Notes under the pieces: model-generated
What the model was told of the DNA's origin: nothing
Databases searched by the model: none
Seen by the model: only the letters and a program-made list of their open reading frames with translations
Program-made: the position numbers and the translations under genes
Part shown: positions 3,263 through 57,675 of the stretch, piece after piece
How positions within the stretch are numbered: the stretch's first letter is position 1
Layout: the number at the start of each line of letters is the position of its first letter
Source of the DNA: a virus
Lineage: Duplodnaviria > Heunggongvirae > Uroviricota > Caudoviricetes
Length of the DNA stretch: 64,000 nt
Reading direction: 5' to 3' (one strand)
Virus record (IMG/VR): IMGVR_UViG_3300028048_000076

Positions 3263-3266
3263 TACG

Positions 3267-4152: not shown

Positions 4153-4272
4153 CATAATTTGACAAGGTAAAAATCTTGTGTTATCGTAAGATAAGACCAC
4201 CACTTCTAAACCAAGAGGTTAGCCGTTAGGCTAATCTGAATGGCGAAAATGGTGGATAACCAACGCCAATTC

Positions 4273-4301
4273 TTGACATTTTTCACAAATAGTGATACAA
4301 T
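4273..4301 (+). promoter_or_regulatory. sigma70-like promoter for tnpB
   Basis: TTGACA (4273..4278), 17-nt spacer, TACAAT (4296..4301). A strong AGGAGGTG ribosome-binding site lies before ATG 4325. Confidence 0.6.
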
Positions 4302-4324
4302 TAAATCAAAGGAGGTGAAACAAA

Positions 4325-18156: not shown

Positions 18157-18645
18157 GGTAGAGTAATCGCTTAATGCCCCTGCAAAGTGTGGAAATTGCT
18201 GGAAAGTCCTAAAGTTTGCTATGCTACAACGTATTTTTAAACAGAATAGCGTGAATGCTTAAAAAATAGCAAAATGAGTCATTATGCTCTTAACGGAAAC
18301 CACATAATGATGATGAAATGGATAATCAGCCGCTAAAACCTCGTCAATGTAAAAATTGAAGGGGGATGTTCAACGAGTAAGTAGGGAACACACCCTCGCT
18401 CACACTAGCTTAAATGTATTCAAACACTTGGCGTTAAAGTGGCATTTGAGTGAAAGATATGCTCTAATCTTTATGGAAACATAAAGAAAAGGAGGAATGT
18501 GTTAAATCCTCCTTGGTTATAAATTGTTTTGTTTTGTTAAATTGTTATATTGTTTTGTTTTAAAATATTTTTTAGATTTTTTGTTGACAACTCCTTAACT
18601 TCATTATATAATATATTATATAACAAAACAAACAAAATATAACTG
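18157..18645 (+). other. group I intron 2 in the dnaE C-fragment (~490 nt, no ORF)
   Basis: Required to join ...NVELVG to LVKLDILKLSNMEAL..., which aligns without a gap to E. coli DVEYAGLVKFDFLGLRTL. The 5' end (taatgcccctgca...tcctaaag...aaacag) resembles intron 1. Boundaries are approximate. Confidence 0.55.
18584..18612 (+). promoter_or_regulatory. perfect sigma70 consensus promoter inside intron 2
   Basis: TTGACA (18584..18589), 17-nt spacer, TATAAT (18607..18612). It is flanked by the inverted repeats ttgttttgtttt (18551..) and aacaaaacaaacaa (18622..). Confidence 0.5.
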
Positions 18646-20469
18646 CTGGTTAAGTTAGATATTCTTAAACTCTCTAATATGGAAGCACTTTATGAGCAAA
18701 TTGATTTGCTTGAAAGTGAATACGGAATTAAAATGACATTGCAAGACATTCCTCTTGATGATAAAAACGCATGGGATTTAATTTGCAAATGTGATACAAT
18801 GGGTGTCTTTCAGATGGAAGGTGACATTGGTAAAAATATCATTAGACAGATTAAACCACGCAATATAGAAGAATTGTCAGCAGTAAACGCATTTGTGCGA
18901 CCAGGTACTTCAGGTCTTGAAAATTATTGTGCAGCTAAAGAAGACCATTCTTTAATTCCGAAGTATGACCCAAAAATTGATAAATGGTTAGCACCTACTT
19001 ATGGAGCAATCGTTTATCAGGAAGAAATTCTTGGTATGATTTCGGAAATGATGGGCGTATCTTTTGGTCGTGCAGATATTTATCGTAGAGCATTGGAAAA
19101 ACCAAACAAGAAGGGTAACAAGGAATTATTTGAAGACTTCTTGAACAATGGCGTTGCTAATGCTGTAAAAAATGGCATTAATGAAGATGGAGCAAAGCGA
19201 ATTCAAAAGGCGATAATTGATAATGCAGGCTACCTCTTTAATAAGAGTCATTCGATTGCCTACTCAATTATCAGTTATTGGTGTGCGTGGGTAAAGGCAA
19301 ATTATCCACTAATTTTCTATCTTTCTTTGATTAATACTGAGCCTGTTTCTAAACTTCAGAACTGTATTACAGAAGCAAGAAAACATGGTATTACAATTTT
19401 ACCGCCTGATATTTCTAAGTCTAAATTCAAAACAACAATCGAAGATAAAGATGCAATGACTATTCGTATGGGCTTACATTGTATTAAAGGTGTTGGCGAT
19501 AAAGCTGTTGATGAATTGATGGCGGCACAGCCATTTACTGACATTGAAGATTATTTGAATCGCGCAGGTAAAGGTGCAGGTAAGGGCGTTGTGATGGCTG
19601 CTATCAAAATTGGTGCTTTGGAAAATCTTCCTTTAAAAATCAACAAAGATTTCATTAAAGAGGAAGATGAAAAACGGTTCAAAGACATTAAAAAAGCCAT
19701 AGAGATGGAGGATTATGTACCATCTGCTGATTTTAGAGAAATGGTTGATGAAGTTACAAATGTAGAATTTGTATATATGAATCGTTTACAACAGGAAATT
19801 TGGTATAACACATATTTGGAAAACAAAACATTAAAATCTGTTAAAAATTATGCGTTGCCACAAGATATTATCCGTGGTCAATATTTAGATAATATTGATA
19901 TGGATGAAGTAACAGTGGAAAAAGACGATACCATTGTTATTCCTGCTGATATGCTTCAGTTGGTTGGCTATACAGAAGAAGATGTTGAGAAATTTAAATC
20001 TCGTAAAAAGCCTAAAGGATTTTTCTTGAAAGAAAATGAATTGAAAAAGCTCACCCCTGTTGAACGTGGATTCAAGGTCGCTTATGATAATTTGGTTCGT
20101 GTTAAGTACAGTGAATTAAATTGTTATCTTGAAGATATGAAAAACTTTGAGATTTCATTTATTCAACATCCTTTAGAAAACATTGCAAATATTATTTGTA
20201 AGATTGCTGAATGTTCTGATGGTAAGAGGGTTCGCAGTGCAGGTATTATTACCAATATTGTCAAAAGACAAACAAAAACAGGCAAACCTTTCTATAATAT
20301 TTTCTTACAAACGCCATCTGAGAACCAAAGGTTGACAGTATGGAACAATATTTTTGTGGAAAATCAAAGCATTCTTACTGTAAATCACATTATTAAAATC
20401 ACAGGAAAAGTGGGATTCGGTGGTATTACAGTAGATACTATTGAAGACGCAAAAGCTAACTACAAATAA
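18646..20469 (+). CDS. dnaE: DnaE C-fragment exon 3 (fingers/thumb, GVFQ and RPG motifs, FNKSHS motif, OB fold)
   Basis: Contains GVFQMEG, NAFVRPGTSG and AGYLFNKSHSIAYS (the intact equivalent of the cyanobacterial split site). The ORF-track 18679..20469 is this exon starting from an internal Met. Confidence 0.8.
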   Translation: MVKLDILKLSNMEALYEQIDLLESEYGIKMTLQDIPLDDKNAWDLICKCDTMGVFQMEGDIGKNIIRQIKPRNIEELSAVNAFVRPGTSGLENYCAAKEDHSLIPKYDPKIDKWLAPTYGAIVYQEEILGMISEMMGVSFGRADIYRRALEKPNKKGNKELFEDFLNNGVANAVKNGINEDGAKRIQKAIIDNAGYLFNKSHSIAYSIISYWCAWVKANYPLIFYLSLINTEPVSKLQNCITEARKHGITILPPDISKSKFKTTIEDKDAMTIRMGLHCIKGVGDKAVDELMAAQPFTDIEDYLNRAGKGAGKGVVMAAIKIGALENLPLKINKDFIKEEDEKRFKDIKKAIEMEDYVPSADFREMVDEVTNVEFVYMNRLQQEIWYNTYLENKTLKSVKNYALPQDIIRGQYLDNIDMDEVTVEKDDTIVIPADMLQLVGYTEEDVEKFKSRKKPKGFFLKENELKKLTPVERGFKVAYDNLVRVKYSELNCYLEDMKNFEISFIQHPLENIANIICKIAECSDGKRVRSAGIITNIVKRQTKTGKPFYNIFLQTPSENQRLTVWNNIFVENQSILTVNHIIKITGKVGFGGITVDTIEDAKANYK

Positions 20470-25886: not shown

Positions 25887-26609
25887 GTGATTCTTTTGAA
25901 TTTCTCCATAACAGGTTCTAGTGCTTTTGAACATATTGATGAAAATACAATTTCTTATAGAGGAGTTAAATTTTCTGATAAAGTTGATACAAAAATGTCT
26001 CAAATAGATATTGTTAATAAAATCAATGAATCTACATCCGTAGAAAAAGATTTTATTCTGTTTGGTTTTTGTACAAACAATTCAGGGTTAAATAACTTTG
26101 CGATATATAAGTTGAAATCTATGGTAAAAAAAGGTCGTTCATATAATATGACTTTACAACGTATAAATGAGCATGATGATGACAACAATGAGTTGAATTT
26201 TGATGCAGGGAATTTCATTTGTACGATTGAAGACTATGTTTATGATATTCCTAGTGGTGATTCCATAGGGTCTGTAAATATTTTATCTGCAAAAGCAAGT
26301 GTGTATGCACAAAAACATCAGCCGAAATATTTTGTAGATACAATTCAGACAAAAGACATTATTACGGATGAAAGTGCCACAGAGCAAAATAAAAAACATT
26401 ATTTTGAGTTGAAACATACTCCGATTGTTGATGAAATGACTTATATGGAAGTTAATGGTGTGAACTATTATGAATCCGCAGATGACATTATCATTGATAG
26501 AGAAAATAATCGTATTTATTTTGACACAGAGGAAGATGACTTTACTTTTGAAAATTTAAAGGAATCGGCTGAAACTGTAAGGGTATTTTATAAATATATC
26601 CCTGAATAA
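25887..26609 (+). CDS. hypothetical protein (possible fibre accessory protein)
   Basis: 240-aa ORF directly downstream of the fibre genes. Confidence 0.4.
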   Translation: MILLNFSITGSSAFEHIDENTISYRGVKFSDKVDTKMSQIDIVNKINESTSVEKDFILFGFCTNNSGLNNFAIYKLKSMVKKGRSYNMTLQRINEHDDDNNELNFDAGNFICTIEDYVYDIPSGDSIGSVNILSAKASVYAQKHQPKYFVDTIQTKDIITDESATEQNKKHYFELKHTPIVDEMTYMEVNGVNYYESADDIIIDRENNRIYFDTEEDDFTFENLKESAETVRVFYKYIPE

Positions 26610-26622
26610 TCAGAAAAATGTT

Positions 26623-26654
26623 AAAACCGCCAAACAAATTTGGCGGTTTTTTCT
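26623..26654 (+). terminator. rho-independent terminator
   Basis: Inverted repeat aaccgccaaa/tttggcggtt followed by a T-run. Confidence 0.7.
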
Positions 26655-26676
26655 ATAATATAATTGGTGATTAAAA

Positions 26677-27246
26677 ATGTTAATGGATGGTTTAATTATT
26701 TTAGGTTTAGATATTTCAACTAAGAATACAGGTTGGAGTATTGTAAAGTATTCAGAAGAAAAATCTGAATTATTGGCATATGGTGATGTTCCACGATTCA
26801 AAATGTCTATGGATGAAGTTCTTGTTAATTTCGAAAAGGAAATGTACAAAATTATTGAAGAATGGAATCCTGATGTTATTTCGGCTGAAGCACCTTTTGT
26901 TGGTAGCAATCGTCAGACTATTGAAAAATTGTGCTTCGTACATGGTGTAGCACAATTGATTGCTAAAAAAGAAAAAATTCCTATAACGTATTATTCTGTA
27001 ATGACTTTGAAATCAAAAGTTCTTGGTGGTATTAAAGCCAAGAAAGAAGATGGAACAAAGAAAACAGGCGCAGAAATGAAACAAGAAGTTCAGGATAAAG
27101 TCATTGAAATTTTTGGTGAGGAAAATTTTACCAAAGAATATAATGATGATATTACTGATAGTATTTCTGCAGCGTACACTTATATTGTCATGGATGGACA
27201 ACCTGTAGAAAAGAAGAAAAAAACTCGAAAAAAATCAAAAAAATAA
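26677..27246 (+). CDS. ruvC: RuvC-like Holliday junction resolvase
   Basis: ILGLDISTKNTGWSIV matches the RuvC N-terminal motif. A later acidic motif is DDITDSISAAYTY. Lys-rich C-terminus. Confidence 0.6.
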   Translation: MLMDGLIILGLDISTKNTGWSIVKYSEEKSELLAYGDVPRFKMSMDEVLVNFEKEMYKIIEEWNPDVISAEAPFVGSNRQTIEKLCFVHGVAQLIAKKEKIPITYYSVMTLKSKVLGGIKAKKEDGTKKTGAEMKQEVQDKVIEIFGEENFTKEYNDDITDSISAAYTYIVMDGQPVEKKKKTRKKSKK

Positions 27247-27247
27247 A

Positions 27248-27279
27248 AAAAAGCAGTGAATTTTTCACTGCTTTTTTCG
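27248..27279 (+). terminator. rho-independent terminator
   Basis: Inverted repeat aaagcagtgaa/ttcactgcttt followed by a T-run. Confidence 0.7.
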
Positions 27280-27326
27280 TATACTAATAATATGTTGATT
27301 AAAAGTTAAAATGAAAAGGACTGATT

Positions 27327-27665
27327 TTGATGATGACTTATTCCAATGAAGAAATTTTGGAAATTTCTCTTGAAGACCTCAATAATGATGGTGAAATGTT
27401 GTTTCATCATCAGATGAACGAATTAAATACGGAAATTGAAGGGTTCTGTCGTGGGTGTAAAGATTTTTGTTTTAATGGACAAGATATTTGCGGAGAAAAT
27501 ATTAAATTGTCTATTGAGCATGATTCTCTTGATGATATGAACTTTGTCATTGTTAGTGAACGTGATGGATATGAAATGCCACAAGTAGATTTCATTCCTA
27601 TTGATATAAAGACGAAATTTGAAGTACGTAGACGTAACGACAATAGAATTAATGTTGTAATGTAA
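27327..27665 (+). CDS. hypothetical protein
   Basis: 112-aa ORF. A hairpin terminator follows (27670..27695). Confidence 0.45.
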   Translation: MMMTYSNEEILEISLEDLNNDGEMLFHHQMNELNTEIEGFCRGCKDFCFNGQDICGENIKLSIEHDSLDDMNFVIVSERDGYEMPQVDFIPIDIKTKFEVRRRNDNRINVVM

Positions 27666-27721
27666 TTAATTGGGTGGAGTTATCCACCCCTTTTGTACGG
27701 TTTAAGAAAAGAGGAAAATAT

Positions 27722-29587
27722 ATGAATGTTTACAGTTCGGAAGGAAAAGTTTATAAAACAGCAAAAGTTGTAGATGAAGCATTTGGACTAAAGGCTAAAG
27801 GTAAAAATACAGTTAAAGAACAAAGAAATAAGATTATTGAAGAAAAAATCCCTGATATTAATGGGGTTGTATATTTCTACGATAAAGTAGAATGGCAGAA
27901 GTATATGATGGGAAATGGGATAAAAAGCGATGTTTTACCCACAACACTGACAGTTGCTAACAATAAAATTAAAGAATATGAAAAAATTTGCAAATTTTAT
28001 CAGAAATTTATTGATAATGTAAGCAATGTATCTCAAAAAATTATTGATGAACAGCTTAGATGGCAGGACTTGTGGTTAGAAGAAGCAAAAAAGATTTATG
28101 TATTCCCTACAGAAAATGAGAAAGCTGAACAACCAACAGTTGAAATGCCTGTTACTGAACCTAAACAAGAAATTATTGAACTGCCACAAGTGGAATCTGT
28201 AGAAAAGTCAAAAAAGACTTTGAATGAAGCAGAACAATATTTTTATGATGTTATTTCTAAAGAGGGCGATAAATTTCTAAATGATGATTTTATGAAAAAA
28301 ATCGGTGGCGAAAATTATGAATTGTATGCTCAACTTACCAAAGAACAAAAATTAAAGCTTATGTTTAACGTCAAAAGCAAACAGTTGTTTTCTGATTATG
28401 AAAACAATGAAGACTGGGATGAAACAAAAGATATTAATGAATTTGACGAAGAACAATGGAAAATTGACCATGCAAAGAAATTGGCAGAGTTTCAAAAAAA
28501 ACAAGAAGCTAAAAAGATTGCTGAAGAACAAAAAAAGAAAGAAGAGCCACAAGAATTGCCTATACCTGAATTATCAGTAGAAGCATATCGTTTGGAAATT
28601 GAAATTTGTCGAGACACAAAACGATTGAAACAAATTGCAGAAATTTGTGATGGTGTTCTTGCAAAATGTACGCACAATCGTAAAATTCGAGAAAAGAATT
28701 ATCAAGGAACTGAAGATTTACGAGTTGTAGAATATGATGCAAGAGAAATTCAGCAGATGGCAATGAAACAGTTGGATAATTTGCAGAATCCGCAGATTGA
28801 AGAACCACAGCAGATTGAATTTCATTGGAGTGCTTCGGATAAATTTGTAAATGAAATGTGGTTGAAAGAAATTTCGTCTTATGATGAAATGATGTGTCGT
28901 ATGGCAAAAGAAGCTCACGAAAAGGATTTACAGCGTTATAATGAAGCATTGGAACAGGGTACAAATCGTGAAACTGAATTTAAAGCAAAAAAAGCTTTTG
29001 AAGAACAATATCTTGCAGAGCTTGCCAAACATGAAAAAAGTCTAGTTGAAAAACGGATTGAATTTAATACTGATTATGAATGCCGTAAATTTGGGTTTGA
29101 TGAATTTGAGACTCAAAAAAATAAGCTTGAACAAATTTTGAAAAATGTTCAAATGATGAAAATTGATGCGACAAATGTAGACAAAGTTAAAATCTCGATT
29201 CGTGCACATGAAAAACAAATGGAAAAAGATTTGATGGAGTATAAGGATAGTATTACTCCTGATGGAATTGTCTATAATAAATATGCTCTTGCAATGAGAT
29301 ATAGAATTGTCAATATTGCAAAAGGTAAACTTAAAGCTTATAATAGTGGTGAGGATTACGTAGAAGAAAAACCACAAGGTAAAGAATTGAAAGCTGTTTA
29401 TTCGCTTGAAGATACCTTGTTTAAACTTACACATGGTGGTACAACCGCAACAAGTGATTTGCAGTATATGAAAGATAGATTCTTGAAAAAGATTCAGGAA
29501 AAAGATTATCAGGTAAGCTATCAGTTTATCGCACTTATGTGTGTAGGTTATCGTGTGGTAATGGCACATTTGGATTCGCAGTTTTAA
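27722..29587 (+). CDS. hypothetical coiled-coil protein
   Basis: ATG 27722 with AAGAGGAAAA ribosome-binding site. The ORF-track start at 27674 lies inside the upstream terminator hairpin. About 621 aa, Lys/Glu-rich. Confidence 0.5.
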   Translation: MNVYSSEGKVYKTAKVVDEAFGLKAKGKNTVKEQRNKIIEEKIPDINGVVYFYDKVEWQKYMMGNGIKSDVLPTTLTVANNKIKEYEKICKFYQKFIDNVSNVSQKIIDEQLRWQDLWLEEAKKIYVFPTENEKAEQPTVEMPVTEPKQEIIELPQVESVEKSKKTLNEAEQYFYDVISKEGDKFLNDDFMKKIGGENYELYAQLTKEQKLKLMFNVKSKQLFSDYENNEDWDETKDINEFDEEQWKIDHAKKLAEFQKKQEAKKIAEEQKKKEEPQELPIPELSVEAYRLEIEICRDTKRLKQIAEICDGVLAKCTHNRKIREKNYQGTEDLRVVEYDAREIQQMAMKQLDNLQNPQIEEPQQIEFHWSASDKFVNEMWLKEISSYDEMMCRMAKEAHEKDLQRYNEALEQGTNRETEFKAKKAFEEQYLAELAKHEKSLVEKRIEFNTDYECRKFGFDEFETQKNKLEQILKNVQMMKIDATNVDKVKISIRAHEKQMEKDLMEYKDSITPDGIVYNKYALAMRYRIVNIAKGKLKAYNSGEDYVEEKPQGKELKAVYSLEDTLFKLTHGGTTATSDLQYMKDRFLKKIQEKDYQVSYQFIALMCVGYRVVMAHLDSQF

Positions 29588-29600
29588 ACGGAGGTAAAAA

Positions 29601-30734
29601 ATGAAAATTGTTTGCTTTGCAGATACACATGCAGGTGTAAAAAACTATGGACGAATTGATAAAGAAACAGGTATGAATGAGCGAGAAGTACAAACGCTCA
29701 AACTTCTTGATGAAACTGTAAACTATGCAATTAACAATAAAGCCGATTGTGTAGTTTTTGCAGGGGATATGTACCACAAAAATATGCCCTCCCCTACTCT
29801 CGTAAATGGTGTGAATGAAGTAATGGTAAAATTGTCTACAAATGGGATTCGTACATTTGTTCTTGACGGAAATCATGATGTGTCAAAAATGGAAACGTTC
29901 GATTCAGGTTTGAAACAGTTTGATACATTAAACATTCCATATTTTACACATAGTCGTTTTTATCAAGAAGAACTTTTTAATTGTAATGGTAATACATATA
30001 GATTTGTATTTTTACCTACATATCATACTAAAGATGAAATTGAAGAATATATGAATAAAGTGGATGATAAATATCCTACATTCATTATTTTTCATGGTTC
30101 TATTAAAGACGCTATGTTAAACGATTGGAATTCTATGGATGGAAAAACTTCAATTGATAAGGAAGTTTTTAATAAGCCAAACGTTTTGGCTGTAATTATG
30201 GGTCATTTCCATAAACATCAGATTCTGAATGAAAAACCACTTGTTTTTTACACAGGGTCTACAAATCGAATTGACTTTACTGAAGAAAAACAGAAAAAAG
30301 GTTTTGTGGAATTGATTGTTGATGATGCCACTTTAGAAACCAAATATAAATTCGTTGAATTGTCAAACGCACAAAAGTTCAAGACCATTCAGGTAGATTG
30401 TACTGATATGTCTACTGCTGAAGAAATTGAAAAAGTGTTGATTAAAGAAATTAACAATACTGATTTGAAAGATGCTATTCTGAGAATTCGATTAAATATG
30501 ACAGAAAATGTTATTGTTGATGAAAAGAAAATTCTTGAAACAGCATATAATAACGGTATCTATTATATGTTAAAAATTCAAAAAATCTTGCCTAATGTTG
30601 AAAGCATTGTTGAAGATGGTATTAGTAATATGCTTTCCATTCAAGATTCGTTGGAAAAATATTTTGACGGAGCAAAACGCAAAACCGAAAGAGTAGCATT
30701 AGGTATGGAGATTGTTAAAGAGGTGGACGAATAA
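29601..30734 (+). CDS. sbcD: SbcD/Mre11-family nuclease
   Basis: Calcineurin-like phosphoesterase motifs are present: FADTHAG, AGDMYH, LDGNHD and GHFHKHQ. gp47-like. Confidence 0.8.
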   Translation: MKIVCFADTHAGVKNYGRIDKETGMNEREVQTLKLLDETVNYAINNKADCVVFAGDMYHKNMPSPTLVNGVNEVMVKLSTNGIRTFVLDGNHDVSKMETFDSGLKQFDTLNIPYFTHSRFYQEELFNCNGNTYRFVFLPTYHTKDEIEEYMNKVDDKYPTFIIFHGSIKDAMLNDWNSMDGKTSIDKEVFNKPNVLAVIMGHFHKHQILNEKPLVFYTGSTNRIDFTEEKQKKGFVELIVDDATLETKYKFVELSNAQKFKTIQVDCTDMSTAEEIEKVLIKEINNTDLKDAILRIRLNMTENVIVDEKKILETAYNNGIYYMLKIQKILPNVESIVEDGISNMLSIQDSLEKYFDGAKRKTERVALGMEIVKEVDE

Positions 30735-31135
30735 TGTATGTGAAACCTGTACAATGCTCTTTGTACACGTATTACGGCACATTGACTCATGCAGGAGAAA
30801 TTGCCAACATTCTTAGAAATAAGAAAATGACGAAGGATGATTTTTATGCTTATGTTAGCAAAGCAGGATTAACATATCGCAATATTGCGGATGAAGACCG
30901 TTCAAAGGAAATCATCATTGGTAAAATGTTGGATTATTATCCTGATTTTGTGGCAATGAAAATCAAACATACTGCTGATGGAATTAAAATGTCACATTTA
31001 AACAAAGCTCCTGTTAAAATGAAATTAACACAAGAAGAAGAATTGAAGGTCAATCAGGCGTTGCTTGGATTAGGGTTTTTCCCTGACTGTGGATATTATA
31101 TGTTCCATAGCTATTCTTCAAAAATTATCAAGTAA
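30734..31135 (+). CDS. hypothetical protein
   Basis: 133 aa. Start overlaps the sbcD stop codon (taATG). Confidence 0.45.
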   Translation: MYVKPVQCSLYTYYGTLTHAGEIANILRNKKMTKDDFYAYVSKAGLTYRNIADEDRSKEIIIGKMLDYYPDFVAMKIKHTADGIKMSHLNKAPVKMKLTQEEELKVNQALLGLGFFPDCGYYMFHSYSSKIIK

Positions 31136-31149
31136 GGACTAATCATTAA

Positions 31150-31452
31150 GCATCAAAAAATATACGCAAGTATTCTTAAACATACTTAAAAAGTGGACAT
31201 TTATCTTTTTGGTATGGCTTGATGATTGGTTTCAAGCTTTAGTGACTACGGCTGACGAAAGTCAGACCGTAGGATGAACTGTGTTAGATGGATAAGGTAA
31301 AAACTCACCTTCGGATGTACTTTCAGTCTGTCGCTCTGAGAACTCCAATCAAGAAACATTGCTAATGTCCTGCAATGATAACAGAGAAAAGTATGACCTC
31401 CCATTTGACTTTGGCAAGAAGGAAAATTCCGTAGAAATACGAGGTAACAGAA
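31150..31452 (+). ncRNA. putative IscB omega-RNA
   Basis: GC-richer, ORF-free region ending at the iscB ribosome-binding site. Contains multiple stems, for example ctacggctgac-gaaa-gtcagaccgtag. Its position 5' of iscB matches known OMEGA architecture. Confidence 0.5.
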
Positions 31453-32685
31453 ATGTTAAAAGAATATTCATTTGTTTTGGATGAAAAAGGTCAGAAATTA
31501 GACCCAACAATTATTCAAAACGCTTGGCGATTAATTCGCCAAAAGAAAGCAAAATTAATTTCCAAATTTCCAATGGTAATACAATTAAATAAGGTTGTTG
31601 AAAATCCTAATAAAGATGAAATTTATTTAGGAATTGATGATGGTGCTGTTCATGTTGGTATTGCTCTTGTTCAAAAATGTTTAACGAAAAACAAAGTCCT
31701 TTTTAAAGGTGTAATTGAACAACGAAAAGATGTTCATAAACTCATGGAACAAAGGAGAAATTATCGTAGATACCATCGGTATCATAAATGGTATAGACCT
31801 CAGAGATTTAATAATCGTTCTTCATCTAAAAGAAAAGGACGGTTAGCACCGTCAATTCTACAGAAGAAACAAGCTATTGTTAGAGTTGTTGACAGGTTGT
31901 TGCAATGGATAAAAATCAATCAAATCCATTTAGAGGATGTAAAAATTGATATTAGAGCATTAACAGATGGATATAAGCCATACAAATGGCAATATCAAAA
32001 ATCTAATCGTTTAGATGAAAATCTTAGAGTCGCAACAATTCTTCGTGACGGATGTTGTATGGAATGTGGTAAATCAAATACCAATTTTGAAGTACATCAC
32101 ATCACACCAAGAAAAAATGGTGGCAGTGATACATTGAGTAATTTGATTACTCTTTGTCCAAAATGTCATCAAAAAACTTTTGGTAGAGAAGAACAGTTTT
32201 CTGATAAATATTATTCTTTGATTGATGGTAAGAATTTACGAGAATTAAAATATGCTCAACATGTCATGCAAGGTAAAACATGGTTACATAATGAATTATC
32301 TAAACGTAGTGATTTAATTTTAACTACAGGTTGTGATACTGCAAACAAGAGAATTGATTGGGATATTGAAAAATCTCATTCTAACGATGCTGTTTGCATA
32401 ACTGATTTAAAACCTGAAAATGTTGATATTTTGGAATATACAATTAAACCAATGCGTAGACAAAGCAAAGCAAAAACGGATAATGTTTTAGGTATCAAAC
32501 ATAGGGACTTGGTTTGTTATACATATCGTAATGGTGAAAAACATACAGGATATGTAACAGCTTTGTATTCAGAATTAAATGCGATTAATTTTCAAAGTCC
32601 AACAAAACATTGTAAAAAAATTAATGCGAAAAAATGTAAGTTGCTTTGGAGATTTAATAAGGTATATTGGTTAAAATGTGTATGA
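31453..32685 (+). CDS. iscB: IscB (OMEGA RNA-guided nuclease; PLMP-RuvC-I-bridge helix-RuvC-II-HNH-RuvC-III)
   Basis: PLMP-like N-terminus [16 protein letters not shown]...PMVIQL. RuvC-I is [15 protein letters not shown]. The Arg-rich bridge helix is [22 protein letters not shown]...LAPS. HNH is [32 protein letters not shown]. RuvC-III is HSNDAVCI. Confidence 0.85.
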
Positions 32686-32734
32686 AATGTACTTTTGTAC
32701 ACATTTATCTATGTTTTAGTAAGGAGGAAATGTC

Positions 32735-34798
32735 TTGTTACCTAAGTATCTTAAAGTAAAAGGGTTTCGTAGTTATATAGATACAGAAATTAATTTTTCT
32801 GATTTTGGACAGATGTTCAGTGTGATGGGGCAGAATGGTGCAGGTAAGAGTTCCATTATTGAAATGATTACTACTGCGTTATATTGGTGCAATTCTTGTA
32901 CTGATTCCAAAGGTGCAGGGATGGATGAATGTATCAATATGGATTGTGACCATTTTGAAATTGAATTCTGTTTCGTTATGAATGGGATTGAATATATCAT
33001 TATAACCAAAAAGTATCGTGGTGAAAGTCGAGAACTTGAATTTTATATTGATGGTGTCAATCAATCCGAAAAAGTAACAGAAACACAGGAAAAGATAAAT
33101 TCTGTTTTAAAAATGGATTATAATACATTCCTTGATACAGTTTGTATTGGACAGGGTAAGTCTAGCCGTTTTATGTCTAAAAAACCTGCTGAACGTAAGC
33201 AGACGTTAATGCAGATTCTTGATGTTCAGAAATATGAACAGTATGAAAAAATGGCAAAAGAACAGAAGAAATCTGTCAAAGAACAGATGGAAGCCATTGA
33301 GTATAAAATTAATCTGCTTGATTCGGAAGAAATTAACGAAGAATTGATTAATGCAGACGTTCAACGAAATGAAAATCAAATTGAAACTTATAAAAAAGAA
33401 CTTTCTGAATTAAATACAGCTCTTGAAAAAGAATTGGAAGAAAAGGCAAAATACAAGTCTATTATTGATTTGAACAATAACACAAAGACTTTAAAAACAA
33501 CGGCAAATAGAAATTACGAAAGTTCACTAGAACGCATTAAACAGGCAGAATCGAAAAAGAAAAAAATCAGTGAGCAACCCATGCCCAATGAAGATGCTTA
33601 CAAAAAAGAAGCAATTGAATTAAAAAAACAATATGAAGAAAATGATTCAAAACTTAATGAATTGAAAGAAGAAATTCATAAGGTAAAAACACAAGCAACG
33701 ATTCATCAGAATTATATCAATGATTACCGTAAACAGTTTGAGGATTTTAAATCTTATAATAAGGCTGTATGTGAATTGTGTGGTAATGAGATTACTGAGG
33801 AACATAAAGAATCTCATTTGAAAAAGATTATGGCACAAGCAAAAGAACACAGTGTCAAGAAAAAATCATTTTTAGCAACAGCAGAGACTTTGACAGAAAA
33901 AGCGACTGAATTAAGTGCTAAAAATCGTGAGATTCGTGAAAGAATTGATTTTTGCAAAGAACAAATTCATTTAGCAAGGTTGCAAAAAAGTCAATATGAT
34001 GATATAATAAGAATGGTAGAATCGCTCAATGAAATGTTTGAAGAAGCAAAAAAACAGAAAGAGCAAGCTGACAAAATGGAAATTTTAAATGTAGAAGAAA
34101 AAGATTTCTGTGATGGTCAGATTAAAATGCAGATTTCTGAGAAAGAATCTCAAATTATGGATTTGACAACGGAAAATGTTCGTTTGCAAGAAAAGGTTAG
34201 TAATTACGCAAAGAACAAAATTCAGTTGGAAGAATTGCAAAAACAGTATGTTGAACTAAAACAGAAGCATACAGATTTGACAGCGGTTGCTACAGCATTT
34301 GGTAAATCAGGCATCCCTGCATCAATTATTGCCCATGATATTCCTGAAATGGAATCAGAAACGAATAAGATTCTGAAAGTTATTTCTAATGATTCTATGT
34401 CAATTCAGTTTATTACATCAAAGAAAACAGCAAACGGAAAACGTTCTGTAGATACTTTGGAAATTGTAGTAAATGATATGAATGGTACAAGACCTTATGA
34501 AACCTATTCAGGTGGTGAAAAGTTTAGAATTGATTTTGCTTGCCATATTGGTATGGCAAAATTCCTTACTAAACGTGCAGGAGCAAGTATTGACTTCCTT
34601 ATTATTGATGAAGGTTTGGGAAGTCAGGACGATTTTGCAAAACAGAAGTTTATTGAGAGCATTAATTCTTTGAAAGGTCTGTTTAAGCAAATTATGGTTA
34701 TTACACATATTCAAGATTTGCAGAATGCATTTGAAAATCGTGTGCTTGTTGAAAAAGACCAATTGAGTGGTTCAAAGGTTGAATTGATGGAGGTATAA
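32735..34798 (+). CDS. sbcC: SbcC/Rad50-family ATPase
   Basis: TTG start with AGGAGG ribosome-binding site. Walker A is GQNGAGKSS. Long coiled-coil region. Signature motif YSGGEKF, Walker B FLIIDEG and H-loop VITHIQ are present. Confidence 0.85.
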   Translation: MLPKYLKVKGFRSYIDTEINFSDFGQMFSVMGQNGAGKSSIIEMITTALYWCNSCTDSKGAGMDECINMDCDHFEIEFCFVMNGIEYIIITKKYRGESRELEFYIDGVNQSEKVTETQEKINSVLKMDYNTFLDTVCIGQGKSSRFMSKKPAERKQTLMQILDVQKYEQYEKMAKEQKKSVKEQMEAIEYKINLLDSEEINEELINADVQRNENQIETYKKELSELNTALEKELEEKAKYKSIIDLNNNTKTLKTTANRNYESSLERIKQAESKKKKISEQPMPNEDAYKKEAIELKKQYEENDSKLNELKEEIHKVKTQATIHQNYINDYRKQFEDFKSYNKAVCELCGNEITEEHKESHLKKIMAQAKEHSVKKKSFLATAETLTEKATELSAKNREIRERIDFCKEQIHLARLQKSQYDDIIRMVESLNEMFEEAKKQKEQADKMEILNVEEKDFCDGQIKMQISEKESQIMDLTTENVRLQEKVSNYAKNKIQLEELQKQYVELKQKHTDLTAVATAFGKSGIPASIIAHDIPEMESETNKILKVISNDSMSIQFITSKKTANGKRSVDTLEIVVNDMNGTRPYETYSGGEKFRIDFACHIGMAKFLTKRAGASIDFLIIDEGLGSQDDFAKQKFIESINSLKGLFKQIMVITHIQDLQNAFENRVLVEKDQLSGSKVELMEV

Positions 34799-34800
34799 AA

Positions 34801-35019
34801 ATGAAATTTGCTAAATATTATCAATATGTTTGTTTGCTTTTGACTTTTGTAAGTATGTTTCATGTCTTGTATGACCTTATTTTTTATGACATTGAAACAA
34901 TAACAGTTGTGGCTGTATTTTGTACCAATGCTCTCAATTTGATGGTTGCAAATTGTTTGGTTCAGAATGAACGCCATAAAGAAATCATGCTTGTATTGAA
35001 GTCAGAGGGAAAAGAATGA
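34801..35019 (+). CDS. small membrane protein
   Basis: 72-aa hydrophobic ORF. An adjacent 51-aa hydrophobic ORF at 35016..35171 is also plausible. Confidence 0.35.
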   Translation: MKFAKYYQYVCLLLTFVSMFHVLYDLIFYDIETITVVAVFCTNALNLMVANCLVQNERHKEIMLVLKSEGKE

Positions 35020-35199
35020 CATATTTTCAAAGATTCCTTGTTAATGCATTTCCTTTAATTTTGTTTTTTTTCATGTGTATGGTTTCTGCATTTACAGGTT
35101 ATGAATTTTTTAGTGGTATTTGGGGAGTATTTTCCATGTTATCCATCATATATTGGTACGAGATAAATTAAATGTTATATTTTAAAAGGAGATTTAATT

Positions 35200-35868
35200 A
35201 TGCAGATTGAAGAATCTTGGGATGAAATTGATGTAAAACCGACTAAGACTAAAAAGAAAGAACAGTCTTATGACCGAGTTGTAGATGAACTTGACGAAGA
35301 ATACAAAGACAAAAATTGTTCTTTTGCAGATGTAGAAATCATTGCTCGTTCTGCATTGAAAGCTCTTCCGAAATTGGATTTTAATCGACTTCGTGTAGAA
35401 ATGGATAATATGGACGTTGCAGTTTATGAAAATCCAACTACTTTTCAGCTTACGGAATCAATGGCAAAAGTACAAGGGTACAAAAACCGTTTGGCAGAAA
35501 TTTCCTCTCTTGTTGAACATGAGTATATTACACGTAAACGTGTAAATGATATTTTGTTTGATGCAAATCAGGCAATCTCTAAGCAGAGTTCCGCAGATAA
35601 GCGTAAGGGCGAAGCAACTCTTCGTTATCCTACCCTTTTGCTTAAATTGAGTTCGATTGAATCATTCCGTTTGGAAGTCAACAATACCATAAATAATATG
35701 CGGTCTATTGGAGAAACGCTTTCTCGACAGACAACAATTATGCAGATGCAGATTTCTCTTGGCGAATATCGCAAGAAATTGCCTGAGGAATTTAAAAAGC
35801 GTGGCGAAGGTGAAGACCAACTTGATTATAAATCAGGTGCTCCTGATTTAAATTGGATGGATGCTTAA
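35200..35868 (+). CDS. hypothetical protein
   Basis: 222-aa ORF with a ribosome-binding site. Confidence 0.5.
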   Translation: MQIEESWDEIDVKPTKTKKKEQSYDRVVDELDEEYKDKNCSFADVEIIARSALKALPKLDFNRLRVEMDNMDVAVYENPTTFQLTESMAKVQGYKNRLAEISSLVEHEYITRKRVNDILFDANQAISKQSSADKRKGEATLRYPTLLLKLSSIESFRLEVNNTINNMRSIGETLSRQTTIMQMQISLGEYRKKLPEEFKKRGEGEDQLDYKSGAPDLNWMDA

Positions 35869-35975
35869 CAGGAAATTCGTTATAATTCTTGTTTTGACTG
35901 TATAGAATAATATATCTCTTGTTAAAATTGTTTAACAAGAGATATATTTGTATTGTAAAATGTGAGGTGTGATAT

Positions 35976-36197
35976 ATGCTAAAATGGAAATTAAAAAATG
36001 TAATTTTGGTTTCATTGTTTTACATTTTTCTTTTTAAATGCATTATAGGATTATCTACTGTAATAGGTATTGCTCTTGCGTGGTCTTTGTCAATGATTGC
36101 AACAATAATAATAGATTATGTATTTGAGTTTGAGTTGTTCTTTGATGAAGAAGAAAACAGTTCGGATGAATATGATAGAGGGCCATTTTACATATGA
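35976..36197 (+). CDS. small membrane protein
   Basis: 73 aa with two predicted transmembrane segments and an acidic tail. Confidence 0.4.
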   Translation: MLKWKLKNVILVSLFYIFLFKCIIGLSTVIGIALAWSLSMIATIIIDYVFEFELFFDEEENSSDEYDRGPFYI

Positions 36198-36232
36198 ATG
36201 TTTGTTTTTTTAATTTTAGGAGCGTGATTTAA

Positions 36233-36793
36233 TTGATTTCTTTACCACAAACAATTAAGCAGATGATGAATAGTTTATCGCAAAAAGCAACACAATCTGC
36301 TTTAAAACTTGTAGAAACAAATTTAACGCAGACTATTCAAAAACAACAATTAACAATTGATAATTTGACAAGTGAATTGAAAGATTTAAAAAATCAGCTA
36401 TCTGATTTAAAAACAAATAATGCAACAACATCATCAATTTTAAATAAAATTGCAGATGAAAATGGTATGATAACTAACTCTGCTAAATTTGGTGATACAT
36501 TTGTACCTGCACATTGGGTTATTGGAAATGATTCTTTTGGGATTCATTTGGGTGACACAGGTAGTGACAAAGGATATGCAGATTTATTTACAACTGACAA
36601 TGGTGATGAACCGATATATGTATCGCAATATATAGGAGGTATGTGTGGAAATCCTATAGAAACTGTTGGGGACTCAAAGTATTTGTGCCATCGTATTACT
36701 CTAATGGATGGGGCAGGAAATCAGCATCTTAATTCTGTGTATGTCTCGCAAATTATTTTCCCTGATGGGACTGTAATGAAAACTGCACGATGA
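36233..36793 (+). CDS. hypothetical protein
   Basis: 186 aa. TTG start at 36233, or ATG at 36263. Confidence 0.45.
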   Translation: MISLPQTIKQMMNSLSQKATQSALKLVETNLTQTIQKQQLTIDNLTSELKDLKNQLSDLKTNNATTSSILNKIADENGMITNSAKFGDTFVPAHWVIGNDSFGIHLGDTGSDKGYADLFTTDNGDEPIYVSQYIGGMCGNPIETVGDSKYLCHRITLMDGAGNQHLNSVYVSQIIFPDGTVMKTAR

Positions 36794-36826
36794 TTAAAAA
36801 AAGGAGAATATTTTGTGAATTTTTTT

Positions 36827-36857
36827 GAGGAAGAGGTAATCACCTCTTCCCTTTTTA
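36827..36857 (+). terminator. rho-independent terminator
   Basis: Inverted repeat ggaagaggt/acctcttcc followed by a T-run. Confidence 0.65.
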
Positions 36858-36896
36858 GGTGAAATGTGTTATAATATGTAGGAGGTGGTGGGGAAA

Positions 36897-37958
36897 ATGA
36901 AGGTAACAAAACCTAGCGAAAAAGAAGTTACACGATTTTTTGAAGCAAGAATTGCAAAAGATGCAATTAGCAAAACGTTAGATAAAGCCAAATCGTTACA
37001 TTTGACAGAATCTGAATGTCAACCAATTATCATTAAACGATTTCAATTGGAAAAAGAATTTTTTGATTTAAAACAAGATTTGATTGCAAAATCAATAATC
37101 AATTCTAATTTGATTGATTTTCAAAACGGTTGGTATGGAATTATTGCACGGAATAAAGATAAAACGGAATTGTTAGTGTCTCCATTAACAAATATTAACG
37201 TTGATGATTTTATTTGCGATTTGAATGTTGGTGCGGTTAAACCAAAACAAGAGTATTTAGATTTGATGGTAGGGAAAATTGACAGCAATGCCCTTGCTGA
37301 TTATAAAACCCTCGTTTTTCGCAAACAAGATGAATATTTAAAGGAATTTTTTGATTGTGAGAACAAAATCATAAAAGATGATGAACAATTTCTTCTTACC
37401 TCACATTGTATTAGACGTTGGAAAGAACGGATTGTGAAAAATTCTGATTCTATGACTATGGATTTACGAAAACAATTTGTAGAAGAAATTTCACAATCAT
37501 TTAAAAATGCAAAATTTACATATCTTGGTAGCGGTGGAGATAAATACTTTCTTGATGAAGACAATATGGCATTTTTTGTGGTCACAACAGATAATGTAAT
37601 TGCTACATTGTGGCGTAACACCTATCAATTCCCAACAATGGAAATTGATAAAGTATGTACGCTTATGATTTTGTCTCATTTGCAAAAGAAAAAAGCTGAA
37701 TTTGAAGAATTTCAAAAAAAAGAAGCTGAAAAAATTGATAATATTTGCATTACAATAAAAAATCAGCAAGAAGTAATTGATGATATTGATAAACAGATTT
37801 CTGATTTGTGGGCAAAAAAATCTGATTGTGTAAAAAAGCAAGAAGAATTGAAACAACAAATTAAAGAATATCAAGACGAAATCAACAATGTTCGTAATGA
37901 CTTGCGAAAAGAAGAATCATTATTATTTAAACCGCATAAGGTGGTATTAGATGAATAA
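36897..37958 (+). CDS. hypothetical protein with C-terminal coiled coil
   Basis: ATG 36897 with GGAGGTGGTG ribosome-binding site. This is preferred over the ORF-track GTG start at 36885. Confidence 0.5.
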   Translation: MKVTKPSEKEVTRFFEARIAKDAISKTLDKAKSLHLTESECQPIIIKRFQLEKEFFDLKQDLIAKSIINSNLIDFQNGWYGIIARNKDKTELLVSPLTNINVDDFICDLNVGAVKPKQEYLDLMVGKIDSNALADYKTLVFRKQDEYLKEFFDCENKIIKDDEQFLLTSHCIRRWKERIVKNSDSMTMDLRKQFVEEISQSFKNAKFTYLGSGGDKYFLDEDNMAFFVVTTDNVIATLWRNTYQFPTMEIDKVCTLMILSHLQKKKAEFEEFQKKEAEKIDNICITIKNQQEVIDDIDKQISDLWAKKSDCVKKQEELKQQIKEYQDEINNVRNDLRKEESLLFKPHKVVLDE

Positions 37959-38565
37959 AACTTTTAAGGAAAAATTATATTATCGACAGCAACGAGCATA
38001 TCTTGGTTTAATGGTGAGTTTATATCATGACTATCCTCGTGAAATGAGTGTTGTAAAAAGACTCGGTGATTACAGTTTGGTGTTTTCTGCACTTGACAAA
38101 GATATTATTAAGAAAATTTGTGCTGTAGGTGTAAGGGCGGTTGTAAATTGCCCAAGACATATTCTTGAAACGCAAACTAAAGTTGTGTATGATACTTATT
38201 TTATTTCACATCTAGCGTTGAAATTTTTAAATGTATATGATTTAGTTAATTTGTTCCCTATTCATAAAGATTATAACGGTGAAAGGGACGGAGTTAAAGA
38301 TTATTTCTACGCTGTAAAATCAATTGAAAAATACAAAGACTATGAAGATTTTCTTGATATGGATGAAGAAGATTTTGAAATTCTTTTGAGCGATTTGCAT
38401 TCAAACATATTGTTTTCATATTTGTGTAAGCAATATGCTTTATCAAATATGTATGATAAAGTGATACAATCTATGTGTAGGGATTATTTTGAATCACATT
38501 TAAAAGAAAAATTCGCTACATTTAAAGTAATTCGAAAGGCAGGTGGAAACCGTGGCAGAAATTAA
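37951..38565 (+). CDS. hypothetical protein
   Basis: 204-aa ORF overlapping the previous gene by 8 nt. Confidence 0.45.
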   Translation: MNKTFKEKLYYRQQRAYLGLMVSLYHDYPREMSVVKRLGDYSLVFSALDKDIIKKICAVGVRAVVNCPRHILETQTKVVYDTYFISHLALKFLNVYDLVNLFPIHKDYNGERDGVKDYFYAVKSIEKYKDYEDFLDMDEEDFEILLSDLHSNILFSYLCKQYALSNMYDKVIQSMCRDYFESHLKEKFATFKVIRKAGGNRGRN

Positions 38566-55712: not shown

Positions 55713-55765
55713 TATATAATAAAGGAGTGATAAACGCATTAAATGTTTTTAGGAGGAATTTCTTT

Positions 55766-56968
55766 ATGAACCCAATTAGTTCAGCAGACAAAAAGAAAAA
55801 ACTTGCCGCACTTAAAAAAGTAATGGGTGGTTTGCAAAAGAAAACAGGTGATGGCAACATCATTCAGATTCTTGGTCAAAAACCAATGGATGACAAAGAA
55901 CGTTTTCAAACAGGGTTTTTGACTCTCGACTATGCAACAGGTGGCGGTATTCGCCGTGGTACAATCGGTGAGTTGTTTGGGCCTGAATCGTCAGGTAAAT
56001 CTCTTGTTTGTCAGAAAATTATTGCTTCTGCACAGAAAATTGGTGCTGTGTGTGCATATGTAGATATGGAGCAGACATTTGACCCTATTTTTGCACGAAA
56101 ACTTGGTGTTAATGTAGATGAACTTATTTTGTCTCAGCCACGTTCTTTGCAACAGGCATTTGAAGTAATTGATGGTCTTGTTGATGCAGGAATTGATATT
56201 ATTGTTCTTGACTCTGTAGCAACACTTGTACCTGAAGAGGAACTTGAGGGAGAAATTGGCAAACAGACAATCGGTTTGGTTGCTCGTTATATGTCACAGT
56301 TCCTTCGCCGTTTGAATGTTAAGATTGCTGATTCTCAAAGTTCTGTACTCTTCGTAAACCAGGTAAGGGATAAGGTGGGAGTTTTATATGGCAATCCTGA
56401 GGAAACTCCTGGAGGTAAGGCCCTAAAATTCTATTGTTCCCTTCGTATGCGTGTATCTAAATCTGCGGAAGGTATGATTAAACCAAAAGCAGATGCAGAA
56501 CCTATCGGTCAGGGAATTCGTGTAAAATGTGTTAAAAATAAAACTGCACCTCCATTCCGTCAGGCAGAATTCAAAGTTTACTTTGATGGTCGTGAGACTT
56601 CTGAAGTTGATGAAATTGCCGATATTGCACTTGCAAAAGGTTTGATTCCAAAGTACAATGCCGCAGGAGAATTGACCCCTACAGGTAGACAGTATCGTTG
56701 GGCAGATGAACCTGAATTCCTTGCTAAATCAAAAGCAGAAGTTCCTGTACAGCTTAAAAAATTCCCAAAAGTTGCAGAAGCTTTGAAGGAAATTATTGTT
56801 AGCGGCAAATTCGATGAAAACGCTGTTGATTATGATGGTAATTCGGCTGAAAATATGGATTCTGATTATGAAGATGAAGATTTTGAAACCCTGATGAAAG
56901 AAGAAGCTAATGCCATTGAAAATGGCAGTGAAGCAGAGGAAATTGAATCTTCATTTGATGGTATGTAA
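55766..56968 (+). CDS. recA: RecA-family recombinase
   Basis: AGGAGG ribosome-binding site before ATG 55766. Walker A is GPESSGKS. Also present are VDMEQTFDP, the L2-like KALKFYCSLRMRV, and an acidic C-terminal tail. Confidence 0.85.
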   Translation: MNPISSADKKKKLAALKKVMGGLQKKTGDGNIIQILGQKPMDDKERFQTGFLTLDYATGGGIRRGTIGELFGPESSGKSLVCQKIIASAQKIGAVCAYVDMEQTFDPIFARKLGVNVDELILSQPRSLQQAFEVIDGLVDAGIDIIVLDSVATLVPEEELEGEIGKQTIGLVARYMSQFLRRLNVKIADSQSSVLFVNQVRDKVGVLYGNPEETPGGKALKFYCSLRMRVSKSAEGMIKPKADAEPIGQGIRVKCVKNKTAPPFRQAEFKVYFDGRETSEVDEIADIALAKGLIPKYNAAGELTPTGRQYRWADEPEFLAKSKAEVPVQLKKFPKVAEALKEIIVSGKFDENAVDYDGNSAENMDSDYEDEDFETLMKEEANAIENGSEAEEIESSFDGM

Positions 56969-57075: not shown

Positions 57076-57675
57076 TTGTCAACTATAGCAATTTTGTTAT
57101 TGGTTGTTTTGAACTTTGGCATTTCTTGGTGGAACGCTAAAGTGACAGGTCAGATTTGGCTTGAAAGTAAAGCGATTGGTGGAATGAGTCGTGTGATGGC
57201 GTGGGTTGGAGCTATCATGGCTGCAATTGGTTTTACTTATAGTTTTGCAATTATTGTATCTTTTGGATTGATGGCATTTGGATATGGATATATTGCACAG
57301 TATGTATTTGCATTGACTTATTTGTTAATTATCTTCCCTGCTATTGGTACAGGTATTATTGTAATGATTGAATCTTGGATTAGATTCTTCCGTGAACGTA
57401 ATTTAGCTAATCTTGGCGTTGCAGGTTGGAATACATTTGCTAATGCGTTTAATATTTACAATGCAGTTGACGGTATTCCACAATCTGTTTCAATCCTTGG
57501 TGGTCTGTTTGATGATGTAGATTTGGATGAAGATAATTTACCACTTATTGTTATTGGTATTGTTGCATTTTGCTTGATTGGTGGTATTCTTCTTACAAGA
57601 TATATCATTGAAACAAATAAAGGAACTTTGGGCGTATCTCAAGAAGTTAGAGATTCCCACGCTCCAATTCGTTAA
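57076..57675 (+). CDS. integral membrane protein
   Basis: 199 aa with at least 5 transmembrane segments. TTG start. A terminator follows at 57677..57724. Confidence 0.5.
   Translation: MSTIAILLLVVLNFGISWWNAKVTGQIWLESKAIGGMSRVMAWVGAIMAAIGFTYSFAIIVSFGLMAFGYGYIAQYVFALTYLLIIFPAIGTGIIVMIESWIRFFRERNLANLGVAGWNTFANAFNIYNAVDGIPQSVSILGGLFDDVDLDEDNLPLIVIGIVAFCLIGGILLTRYIIETNKGTLGVSQEVRDSHAPIR

Follow-up and report, generated by a model that had tools for sequence, protein, structure and literature searches.

The window analysed here is the whole stretch of 64,000 nucleotides (nt) from the IMG/VR virus record IMGVR_UViG_3300028048_000076 (Caudoviricetes). On its + strand it carries a mobile element of 1587 bp (31138..32724), which is composed of an ωRNA gene (31138..31452), the nuclease gene iscB (31453..32685) and a short right end (32686..32724). 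Cas9 descends from IscB-ωRNA systems. Upstream of the element lie sbcD (29601..30734), which encodes an Mre11-like nuclease, and a gene for a protein of 133 amino acids (aa), here called orf133 (30734..31135). Downstream follows sbcC (32735..34798), which encodes a Rad50-like ATPase and starts with TTG. All of them are on the + strand, and the element is oriented like the sbcD-orf133-sbcC operon. The original prediction, made from the letters of the DNA, had seen an IscB-ωRNA element at 31136..32700, inserted between adjacent sbcD and sbcC genes. The locus and the module were correct, but the two genes are not direct neighbours, since orf133 separates them, and it is between orf133 and sbcC that the element resides. 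Its ends also had to be moved to 31138 and 32724.

The IscB protein and its ωRNA

The open reading frame (ORF) 31453..32685 is present on the + strand as claimed, with every motif that had been quoted for it. It starts with ATG and encodes 410 aa. The product reaches 282 bits with NF040563, the curated IscB equivalog of NCBIfam (cutoff 175), whereby residues 7-316 cover positions 2-313 of the 314 positions of the profile. The Pfam domains RRXRR (1e-47, residues 7-183) and HNH (3e-14) are recognised as well. The closest solved structure is that of HfmIscB (PDB 9k2z; E = 3.5e-174). The two proteins share 258 of 404 aligned residues (63.9%) and are colinear from residue 4 to 408.

The catalytic residues were aligned with those of OgeuIscB and HfmIscB. 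For RuvC they are D62 (RuvC-I), E161 (RuvC-II) and H309/D312 (RuvC-III), embedded in GIDDG, HLEDV and SHSNDA, respectively; the counterparts in OgeuIscB are GIDPG, LE and H..DA. The HNH domain is inserted in RuvC. When aligned to the solved IscBs, it displays its zinc-binding Cys pairs (CMECG...EVHHITPR...N230...CPKCH) and the catalytic residues H215/H216, N230 and H239. The bridge helix is marked by FNNR and LAPS, while at the N-terminus KLDPT replaces PLMPT. The colinear alignment with HfmIscB up to residue 408 further implies a C-terminal domain that interacts with the target-adjacent motif (TAM). A REC lobe is not found in the 410 aa. Judged from its sequence, this is an IscB of full length that has kept its whole catalytic set; the predicted full domain order is borne out, and no catalytic residue of RuvC or HNH is missing. 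RNA-guided, TAM-dependent cleavage of double-stranded DNA can be predicted for it.

HfmIscB belongs to the same length class and shares the PLMP-like N-terminus, the bridge helix, the split RuvC, the HNH domain and the TAM-interacting region. It is nevertheless a separate ortholog, and its deposited chain reads EVAH instead of EVHH, presumably due to an engineered inactivation. A literature search yielded no paper describing HfmIscB or the entries 9K2Z, 9K30 and 9K31 of PDB. OgeuIscB is far more distant (similarity only about E = 1e-22) and has a beta-hairpin REC linker insert that is absent here (496 versus 410 aa). The protein is not to be classified with type II CRISPR-Cas9: with the Cas9d model it reaches just 23 bits (cutoff 375), the REC lobe is lacking and no spaced repeat array was found within 26000..38000. 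What the window offers is a compact IscB ortholog of 410 aa that is related to a solved structure and has a defined ωRNA.

The 317 nt in front of iscB (31136..31452) had been described as ORF-free, GC-richer and hairpin-rich, and so they are. On the + strand there is no ORF of at least 50 aa, and the antisense strand has only two mechanical ones of 52 and 53 aa. The GC content is 0.37 (0.41 in the core, 31228-31452), as compared to 0.30-0.34 in the neighbouring genes. The + strand folds with -79 kcal/mol (z = -3.55), which none of 100 shuffled sequences equalled, whereas the - strand (z = -1.88) is not clearly better than shuffled sequence. The proposed comparison with the HEARO covariance model (Rfam RF02033) gave a mixed answer. 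The match is on the right strand and covers the full length of the model (positions 1-211 at 31229..31429), yet it is a sub-threshold one of 18.4 bits (E = 0.1-0.7), the gathering score being 83. The relatives of the element, which reach 31-42 bits, also stay below this threshold. By itself, the HEARO match is thus no proof of an ωRNA.

The decisive evidence comes from the family. The relatives gathered comprise 10 GenBank records of Staphylococcus phages (51-58% protein identity), 24 viral contigs of IMG/VR (56-74%) and 12 contigs of bacteria or metagenome-assembled genomes (MAGs). Their upstream regions align well with that of the window. For 21 non-redundant sequences RNAalifold proposed a structure of 67 base pairs, and in 40 of these both partners have changed in a compensatory manner. 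This number fell to 10 or less when the partners were slid by 1-3 columns, and the fraction of paired cells dropped from 98.1% to 32-41%; the structure was derived from the same alignment, which biases the comparison with the slid controls somewhat, but the margin is large. Not one of 500 shuffles matched any of the observed pairing measures. The window's own RNA forms 61 of the 67 family pairs, and the family profile finds a single copy in the window with nhmmer (31138..31445, E = 3e-67).

The first helix, P1, pairs 31138-31153 with 31215-31230 (columns 1-16 with 82-97 of the alignment), and 6 of its 13 pairs have changed on both sides. Thus ATCAT pairs with ATGAT in the window, ACCGT with ACGGT in relative L007, ATTAT with ATAAT in L009 and CTGTT with AACAG in L025. 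Even in the chromosomal copies of Bacillus and Virgibacillus, where the left-end sequence is unrelated, this closing helix is kept directly 5' of TTTCAAGCC. The HEARO consensus likewise opens with a closing stem, which encloses small hairpins and directly precedes the pseudoknot strand cAGcc, and the order continues in both with central hairpins and the 3' pseudoknot partner. The position and strand relative to the ORF agree, too. The window's P1 differs in being much longer; it has about 13-16 bp and closes a loop of about 65 nt.

By comparative sequence analysis, then, the 315 nt upstream of iscB form an ωRNA of conserved structure, and base 1 of the element opens its first helix. This assignment is owed to the covariation within the family, for which the Rfam model alone would not suffice, and the lack of conserved structure that might have spoken against the original prediction was not encountered. 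The RNA represents a divergent HEARO subfamily of matching architecture.

Two other explanations of the locus can be judged at this point. The Pfam HNH domain and the label "HNH endonuclease" in the GenBank records of Staphylococcus phages would also suit an ordinary protein-only HNH homing endonuclease with the upstream region as its 5' untranslated region. The curated IscB model is passed, however, the protein can be aligned over its whole length with solved IscB-ωRNA complexes, its RuvC is split and the upstream RNA has 40 compensatory pairs; this explanation is effectively refuted.

The element could also be a decaying, inactive relic that the phage carries passively. The missing transposase, the 6 mismatched pairs out of 67 and the very low Rfam score would fit, as would the premature stop in at least one relative (L011, IMGVR_UViG_7000000553_000025, 2986..3453). 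There the IscB frame stops after 155 aa, while homologous sequence runs on; either the copy in L011 has decayed or its assembly is faulty. Against a relic stand the full-length ORF of the window, its complete set of catalytic residues and a ratio of nonsynonymous to synonymous change (pN/pS) of 0.22-0.48 (versus six relatives, with synonymous sites saturated), which implies that iscB is under purifying selection. Moreover, the identical protein is found in two samples, and other divergent but intact copies contain 2-6 mismatched pairs likewise. We consider a relic very improbable.

Element ends and empty alleles

A search of related phages for an empty junction, as had been recommended, was successful. 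In six metagenomic contigs, which stem from other samples, the 133-aa protein is identical but the element is missing, sbcC starting 13 nt past the stop codon of orf133. Two of them, L036 and L040, correspond exactly to the empty site that results from removal of 31138..32724, over about 105 nt on each side, and the genomes are about 96% identical overall. Hence the insertion is truly polymorphic, being present in some members of one phage species and absent from others, and orf133 is native to the backbone. By exact-protein look-up the window matches a 206-kb contig (ENA ERZ27252073), and the filled allele with the same protein turned up again in a second sample. The perfect identity of 105 nt on each side in L036 was also considered as a co-conversion tract; this idea was dismissed because 100-nt blocks of 100% identity occur elsewhere in the flanks.

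With a slash for the junction, the ends of the element in the window read ..ATCAAGTAAGG/ACTAATC....TTTTAGTAAGG/AGGAAATGTCTTG. The 7-bp direct repeat AGTAAGG (31131..31137 and 32718..32724) reflects junction ambiguity. Across the copies, such "repeats" vary between 3 and 11 bp, as is expected of ambiguous junctions and not of a fixed-length duplication. The element start ACTAAT and the end ..AAGG are common to more than 13 independent copies. The right end (32686..32724) has a hairpin beside the stop codon of iscB, terminates with TTTTAGTAAGG and thereby rebuilds the 5' half of the ribosome-binding site of sbcC. The 3' half is provided by the right flank, AGGAAATGTC (32725..32734). Whether the element is present or absent, sbcC retains AGTAAGGAGG upstream of its TTG start.

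Similar allele pairs exist among cultured phages. Staphylococcus phage JDF86 (L002, element at 3727..5275) is filled, while phiSA_BS1 (L004, around 1330) lacks about 1.55 kb at this site, the flanks being 99.8% identical. Golestan101-M (L001, filled) and PSU4 (L005, empty) form a second pair at a different site. The junctions are ..TAAAGG/ACTTAC....AAGGAGG/AGAAAAG and ..GTAAGG/ACTTAC....AAAAAGG/GGATAC, respectively, and in both cases it is the ribosome-binding site of the following gene that contains the element. In cultured Staphylococcus Herelleviridae the IscB element occupies three ribosome-binding sites altogether, and its genes are labelled only "HNH endonuclease" or "hypothetical protein". 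These copies (Golestan101-M, JDF86, VL10 and the CIFT_MFB_MRSA series) resemble that of the window in the protein (51-58% identity), in the ωRNA core (conserved to about 74%), in the insertion into ribosome-binding sites and in the clean empty sites of sister phages; some of the records even annotate "HEARO". They differ by a P1 that is shorter (left end and core are 37 nt apart, as opposed to 90 nt), by the phage family and by their three genomic sites.

The statements on junctions in general are based on about 13 clear copies out of 22 and on three pairs validated by real empty sites, since the automatic calls of the right junction were off in about 8 of the 22 loci. In these copies the left flank ends with (A)AGG, as does the element itself (in most of the 22 copies), and the right flank starts with AGG, less often with GGG, GAGG or AGA. 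The start of a co-oriented gene follows 8-14 nt beyond the right junction. Flank motifs and start codon together indicate that the insertion site is the Shine-Dalgarno consensus (AAGG/AGG), which is restored by the right end of the element.

As originally stated, the element has no tnpA; iscB is the only ORF in 31138..32724. No TnpA-sized ORF adjoins any of about 40 relatives. Missing TnpA is typical of non-autonomous ISC elements in surveys (Goltsman et al. 2022, PMC9755519). With IS200/IS605 elements the copies have in common that no terminal inverted repeat is seen (22 copies) and that a short motif at the junction (the TAM) is matched by a similar one, the transposon-encoded motif (TEM), inside the opposite end. 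TnpA of IS200/IS605 elements recognises subterminal DNA hairpins at both ends. Several copies have a hairpin beside the stop codon of iscB at one end and P1 at the other, which would need a cognate TnpA to count as such binding sites; a Y1 (HUH) transposase of this family is found neither in nor beside the element. Insertion at GG in the manner of IS607 was considered and rejected: about 16 of the 22 copies have GG in front of the element, others AGA, AAA or AAG, and the scanned ORFs of the window contain no serine-recombinase domain.

For IS607-type TnpB, TAMs such as AGGAG and GAGGG and insertion at GG have been reported (review PMC13565253). These Shine-Dalgarno-like TAMs are a similarity to the present element. 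The IS607-type systems, with their RAGATH-18 ωRNA, nevertheless differ in using another nuclease family, in having the guide at the 3' end and in the involvement of a serine-recombinase TnpA, of which the scanned ORFs show nothing here; GG at the junction of our copies is frequent but not invariant.

Ribosome-binding sites of many genes harbour relatives of the element, both in other phages and in chromosomes of the Bacillus type. The chromosomal copies in isolates of Bacillus and Virgibacillus (L047-L050) show 53-55% identity and no adjacent TnpA. Bacillus taeanensis has at least two copies (L049 and L050, on two contigs), which points to real transposition. These observations bear on a purely restorative role of IscB: the element would be an IS200/IS605-type passenger moved by a TnpA acting in trans, and IscB would just reinstall it after excision, without any homing from phage to phage. 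Transposon retention is indeed the role of IscB established by experiment (Meers et al., PMC10055086); the many insertion sites and the copies in B. taeanensis require a transposition step, and (A)AGG, present at both ends in the manner of a TAM and a TEM, agrees with the logic of TnpA. On the other hand, TnpA is absent from the element, from the tested ORFs of the window and from the neighbourhood of the relatives. Without excision there is nothing to restore, though iscB is under purifying selection. The filled/empty polymorphism among phages of about 96% identity, finally, is what horizontal homing predicts. A restorative role as the only one appears rather unlikely to us.

Guide, target and spreading

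The OMEGA model, which reportedly goes back to Altae-Tran in 2021, is readily applied to the window. The element shares with OgeuIscB and GstIscB (ISGst5) the ωRNA upstream of the gene, the guide from the flank, the TAM at the far junction, the empty joint as target and the conserved catalytic residues. It differs from them in being phage-borne and in having no identified TnpA family partner; also, the TAM of ISGst5 is AT-rich (TTCAT), as opposed to the Shine-Dalgarno-like AAGG/AGG deduced here. This layout has been worked out for IscB by experiment: the ωRNA precedes the gene, its guide is taken from the flank beside it, the TAM is situated at the other junction, and the element-free joint serves as target (Meers et al., PMC10055086).

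Since the scaffold starts with P1 at 31138, the guide must come from the flank, i.e., from about 31122..31137 on the + strand. These 16 nt directly 5' of the scaffold, AAATTATCAAGTAAGG, comprise the last codons of orf133 and are the predicted guide and target half-site; the length of 16 nt was taken over from other IscBs. The predicted TAM, AGG..., is the beginning of the right flank. Guide in the left flank and TAM in the right one would be the canonical OMEGA layout, inferred here by analogy. Elsewhere in the window the 16-mer has no credible match. A fixed internal guide was also considered, because 37-90 nt between left end and conserved core are common to copies at different sites. It was rejected: the compensatory pairing with the first bases of the element identifies this stretch as part of helix P1 of the scaffold. 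An 11-nt complementarity between the same stretch and the left terminus might have meant self-targeting or autoregulation; it is simply P1, the same closing stem as at the 5' end of HEARO.

No σ70-like promoter was detected inside the ωRNA region, and every copy examined is co-oriented with its upstream gene, which fits read-through transcription. A transcript entering from orf133 would yield an ωRNA with the guide at its 5' end. IscB loaded with it would recognise the guide-matching sequence only when the TAM follows, as in the empty allele. In the filled allele this sequence is followed by ACT, in the empty one by AGG, and the difference probably serves to tell self from target; the occupied allele would be spared. 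Upon co-infection by a filled and an empty phage, the empty orf133-sbcC junction would be cut and the break repaired by recombination from the occupied genome, whereby the element would be copied in. Arrival at new ribosome-binding sites would still need an IS200/IS605-type TnpA in trans.

Most likely, therefore, in our judgement of the whole, the window contains a non-autonomous IscB-ωRNA element of the OMEGA (HEARO) type that resides in the Shine-Dalgarno sequence of sbcC and spreads by RNA-guided homing into empty alleles. That it is of the homing type and still active, as had been surmised from the start, is what we infer from the filled/empty polymorphism and the purifying selection.

Several facts weigh against this interpretation. 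No transposase is encoded in the element or in the 20 other ORFs of the window that were scanned (part of the window's ORFs), and the carrier phage is uncultured. TAM and guide length were derived from the junctions alone, and the boundary of the element is ambiguous by 7 bp. The score with HEARO is so far below the gathering score that formal Rfam membership fails. In the ωRNA of the window the 6 deviating pairs are non-canonical, and two of them are adjacent in helix 8.

A weak lead concerns the target itself. Four of the six empty alleles (L035, L037, L038 and L041, representing three independent lineages) have private synonymous changes at -15 (A>G), -12 (T>C), -9 (C>T) or +1 (A>G), counted from the junction between 31137 and 32725; +1 is the first base of the TAM, and the others are inside the predicted 16-nt target. 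About 100 nt on each side are nearly invariant among the empty alleles. Fisher's test on third codon positions gave p = 0.015 for the target polymorphism, as a post hoc test. In the 3.6 kb of flank, only 3.3% of all 17-nt windows have as many polymorphic sites, which is a post hoc figure, too. The apparent excess is weak and suggestive only; the substitutions in target and TAM could be escape variants.

The phage might, of course, profit more than the element. IscB could be a weapon that cuts the empty allele to exclude competing phages (marker exclusion), or it could be domesticated for regulation. The free-standing homing endonucleases of T-even phages, Seg and Mob, act this way (review PMC13565253), the cleavage step would be the same as in homing, and the element resides within the recombination module of the phage (SbcCD, RecA, RuvC). 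Like the window's element, Seg and Mob genes lie between conserved phage genes, are variably present in close relatives (PMC13565253) and are expected to spread by cutting the element-free allele in co-infection; they differ in that protein contacts read the DNA, while recognition by the window's element is predicted to depend on a guide RNA that is a copy of the flank, together with a short TAM. What disfavours a weapon is that the guide is merely the adjacent flank, as in mobile copies, and that the same type of element is found at many unrelated loci. Also, most sampled genomes of the phage species do without it (six contigs empty, as against two samples filled), which argues against an important function for the host. 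A benefit primarily for the phage is, in our opinion, improbable.

Returning to homing, one may go a step further and propose that this clade uses the Shine-Dalgarno consensus AAGG/AGG both as insertion motif and as TAM, acts as a gene drive without transposase between co-infecting phages and selects, by doing so, for target changes as escape mutations. We advance this as a tentative idea, with more doubt than confidence. If it were true, nearly every co-transcribed gene of phages with low-GC hosts would offer the element a ribosome-binding site to enter, and expression would be left undisturbed. A description of such a target logic for this IscB clade was not found in the literature searched.

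Virus-borne IscB as such is not new. According to an earlier report, over 16% of the fragments encoding HEARO are viral or prophage-derived, and IscB/HEARO, the ωRNA and the role in transposon retention are established. What is added here are the exact ends of the element with a prediction of guide and TAM, the Shine-Dalgarno target logic of the clade and natural pairs of filled and empty alleles. A natural role of IscB has so far been shown only for transposon retention in bacteria. In the present phage species both kinds of allele occur naturally, and their junction directly reveals guide, target and likely TAM; the cultured pair JDF86 (filled) and phiSA_BS1 (empty) makes OMEGA-driven homing between co-infecting phages directly testable.

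The phage backbone and other elements of the window

The genes flanking the element belong to the backbone. The product of sbcD matches Pfam Metallophos (2e-11) and TIGR00619 (sbcd, 77.2 bits), that of sbcC matches AAA_23 (4e-16) and TIGR00618 (6e-65). The 133-aa protein has no Pfam or NCBIfam match, but all backbone relatives (L030, L031 and L035-L041), though devoid of the element, have its gene at the same position between sbcD and sbcC. In the distant relatives L030 and L031 (SbcC 77% and 56% identical, respectively) the order is sbcD, a gene of 133/136 aa, 14-18 nt and sbcC, without IscB. The protein could assist the SbcCD nuclease of the phage.

A megablast search of the locus against GenBank phages yielded no match, and the backbone thus is without a close cultured relative. 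The best match of SbcC is found in Bacillus phage G, with 33% identity. The carrier is probably a large phage of a low-GC host. Apart from SbcCD, it encodes a RuvC-like resolvase (26677..27246) and RecA (55727..56968; PF00154, 1e-83), which means that recombination machinery usable for the repair step of homing is on board. Two MAG contigs, L043 (Gemella sp., 208 kb) and L052 (Veillonella sp.), contain copies whose ωRNA left-end region resembles that of IMG/VR phage copies such as L009. They may be phage genomes that were binned into MAGs, and they hint at oral or gut Firmicutes as hosts of this phage group.

The window holds other elements as well. A TnpB gene (58206..59387; Pfam OrfB_IS605, Cas12f1-like_TNB and HTH_OrfB_IS605) is part of a second OMEGA-type element (58206..59506). 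A RAGATH-18 RNA (59443..59506) begins 56 nt past the gene and scores 60 bits, the gathering score being 44.9; RAGATH-18 is tied to the guide RNAs of IS607-type TnpB (2026 review, PMC13565253). The sequence GGGAGGG is found just upstream of the TnpB start codon, and the upstream ORF 57076..57675 has no recombinase domain. Finally, a group I intron (Rfam RF00028, 18107..18486, 51.5 bits) splits a gene for a DNA polymerase III alpha-like protein in the region 17707..20469 into the ORFs 17707..18174, with the DNA_pol3_alpha domain, and 18679..20469, with the finger and HHH_6 domains.

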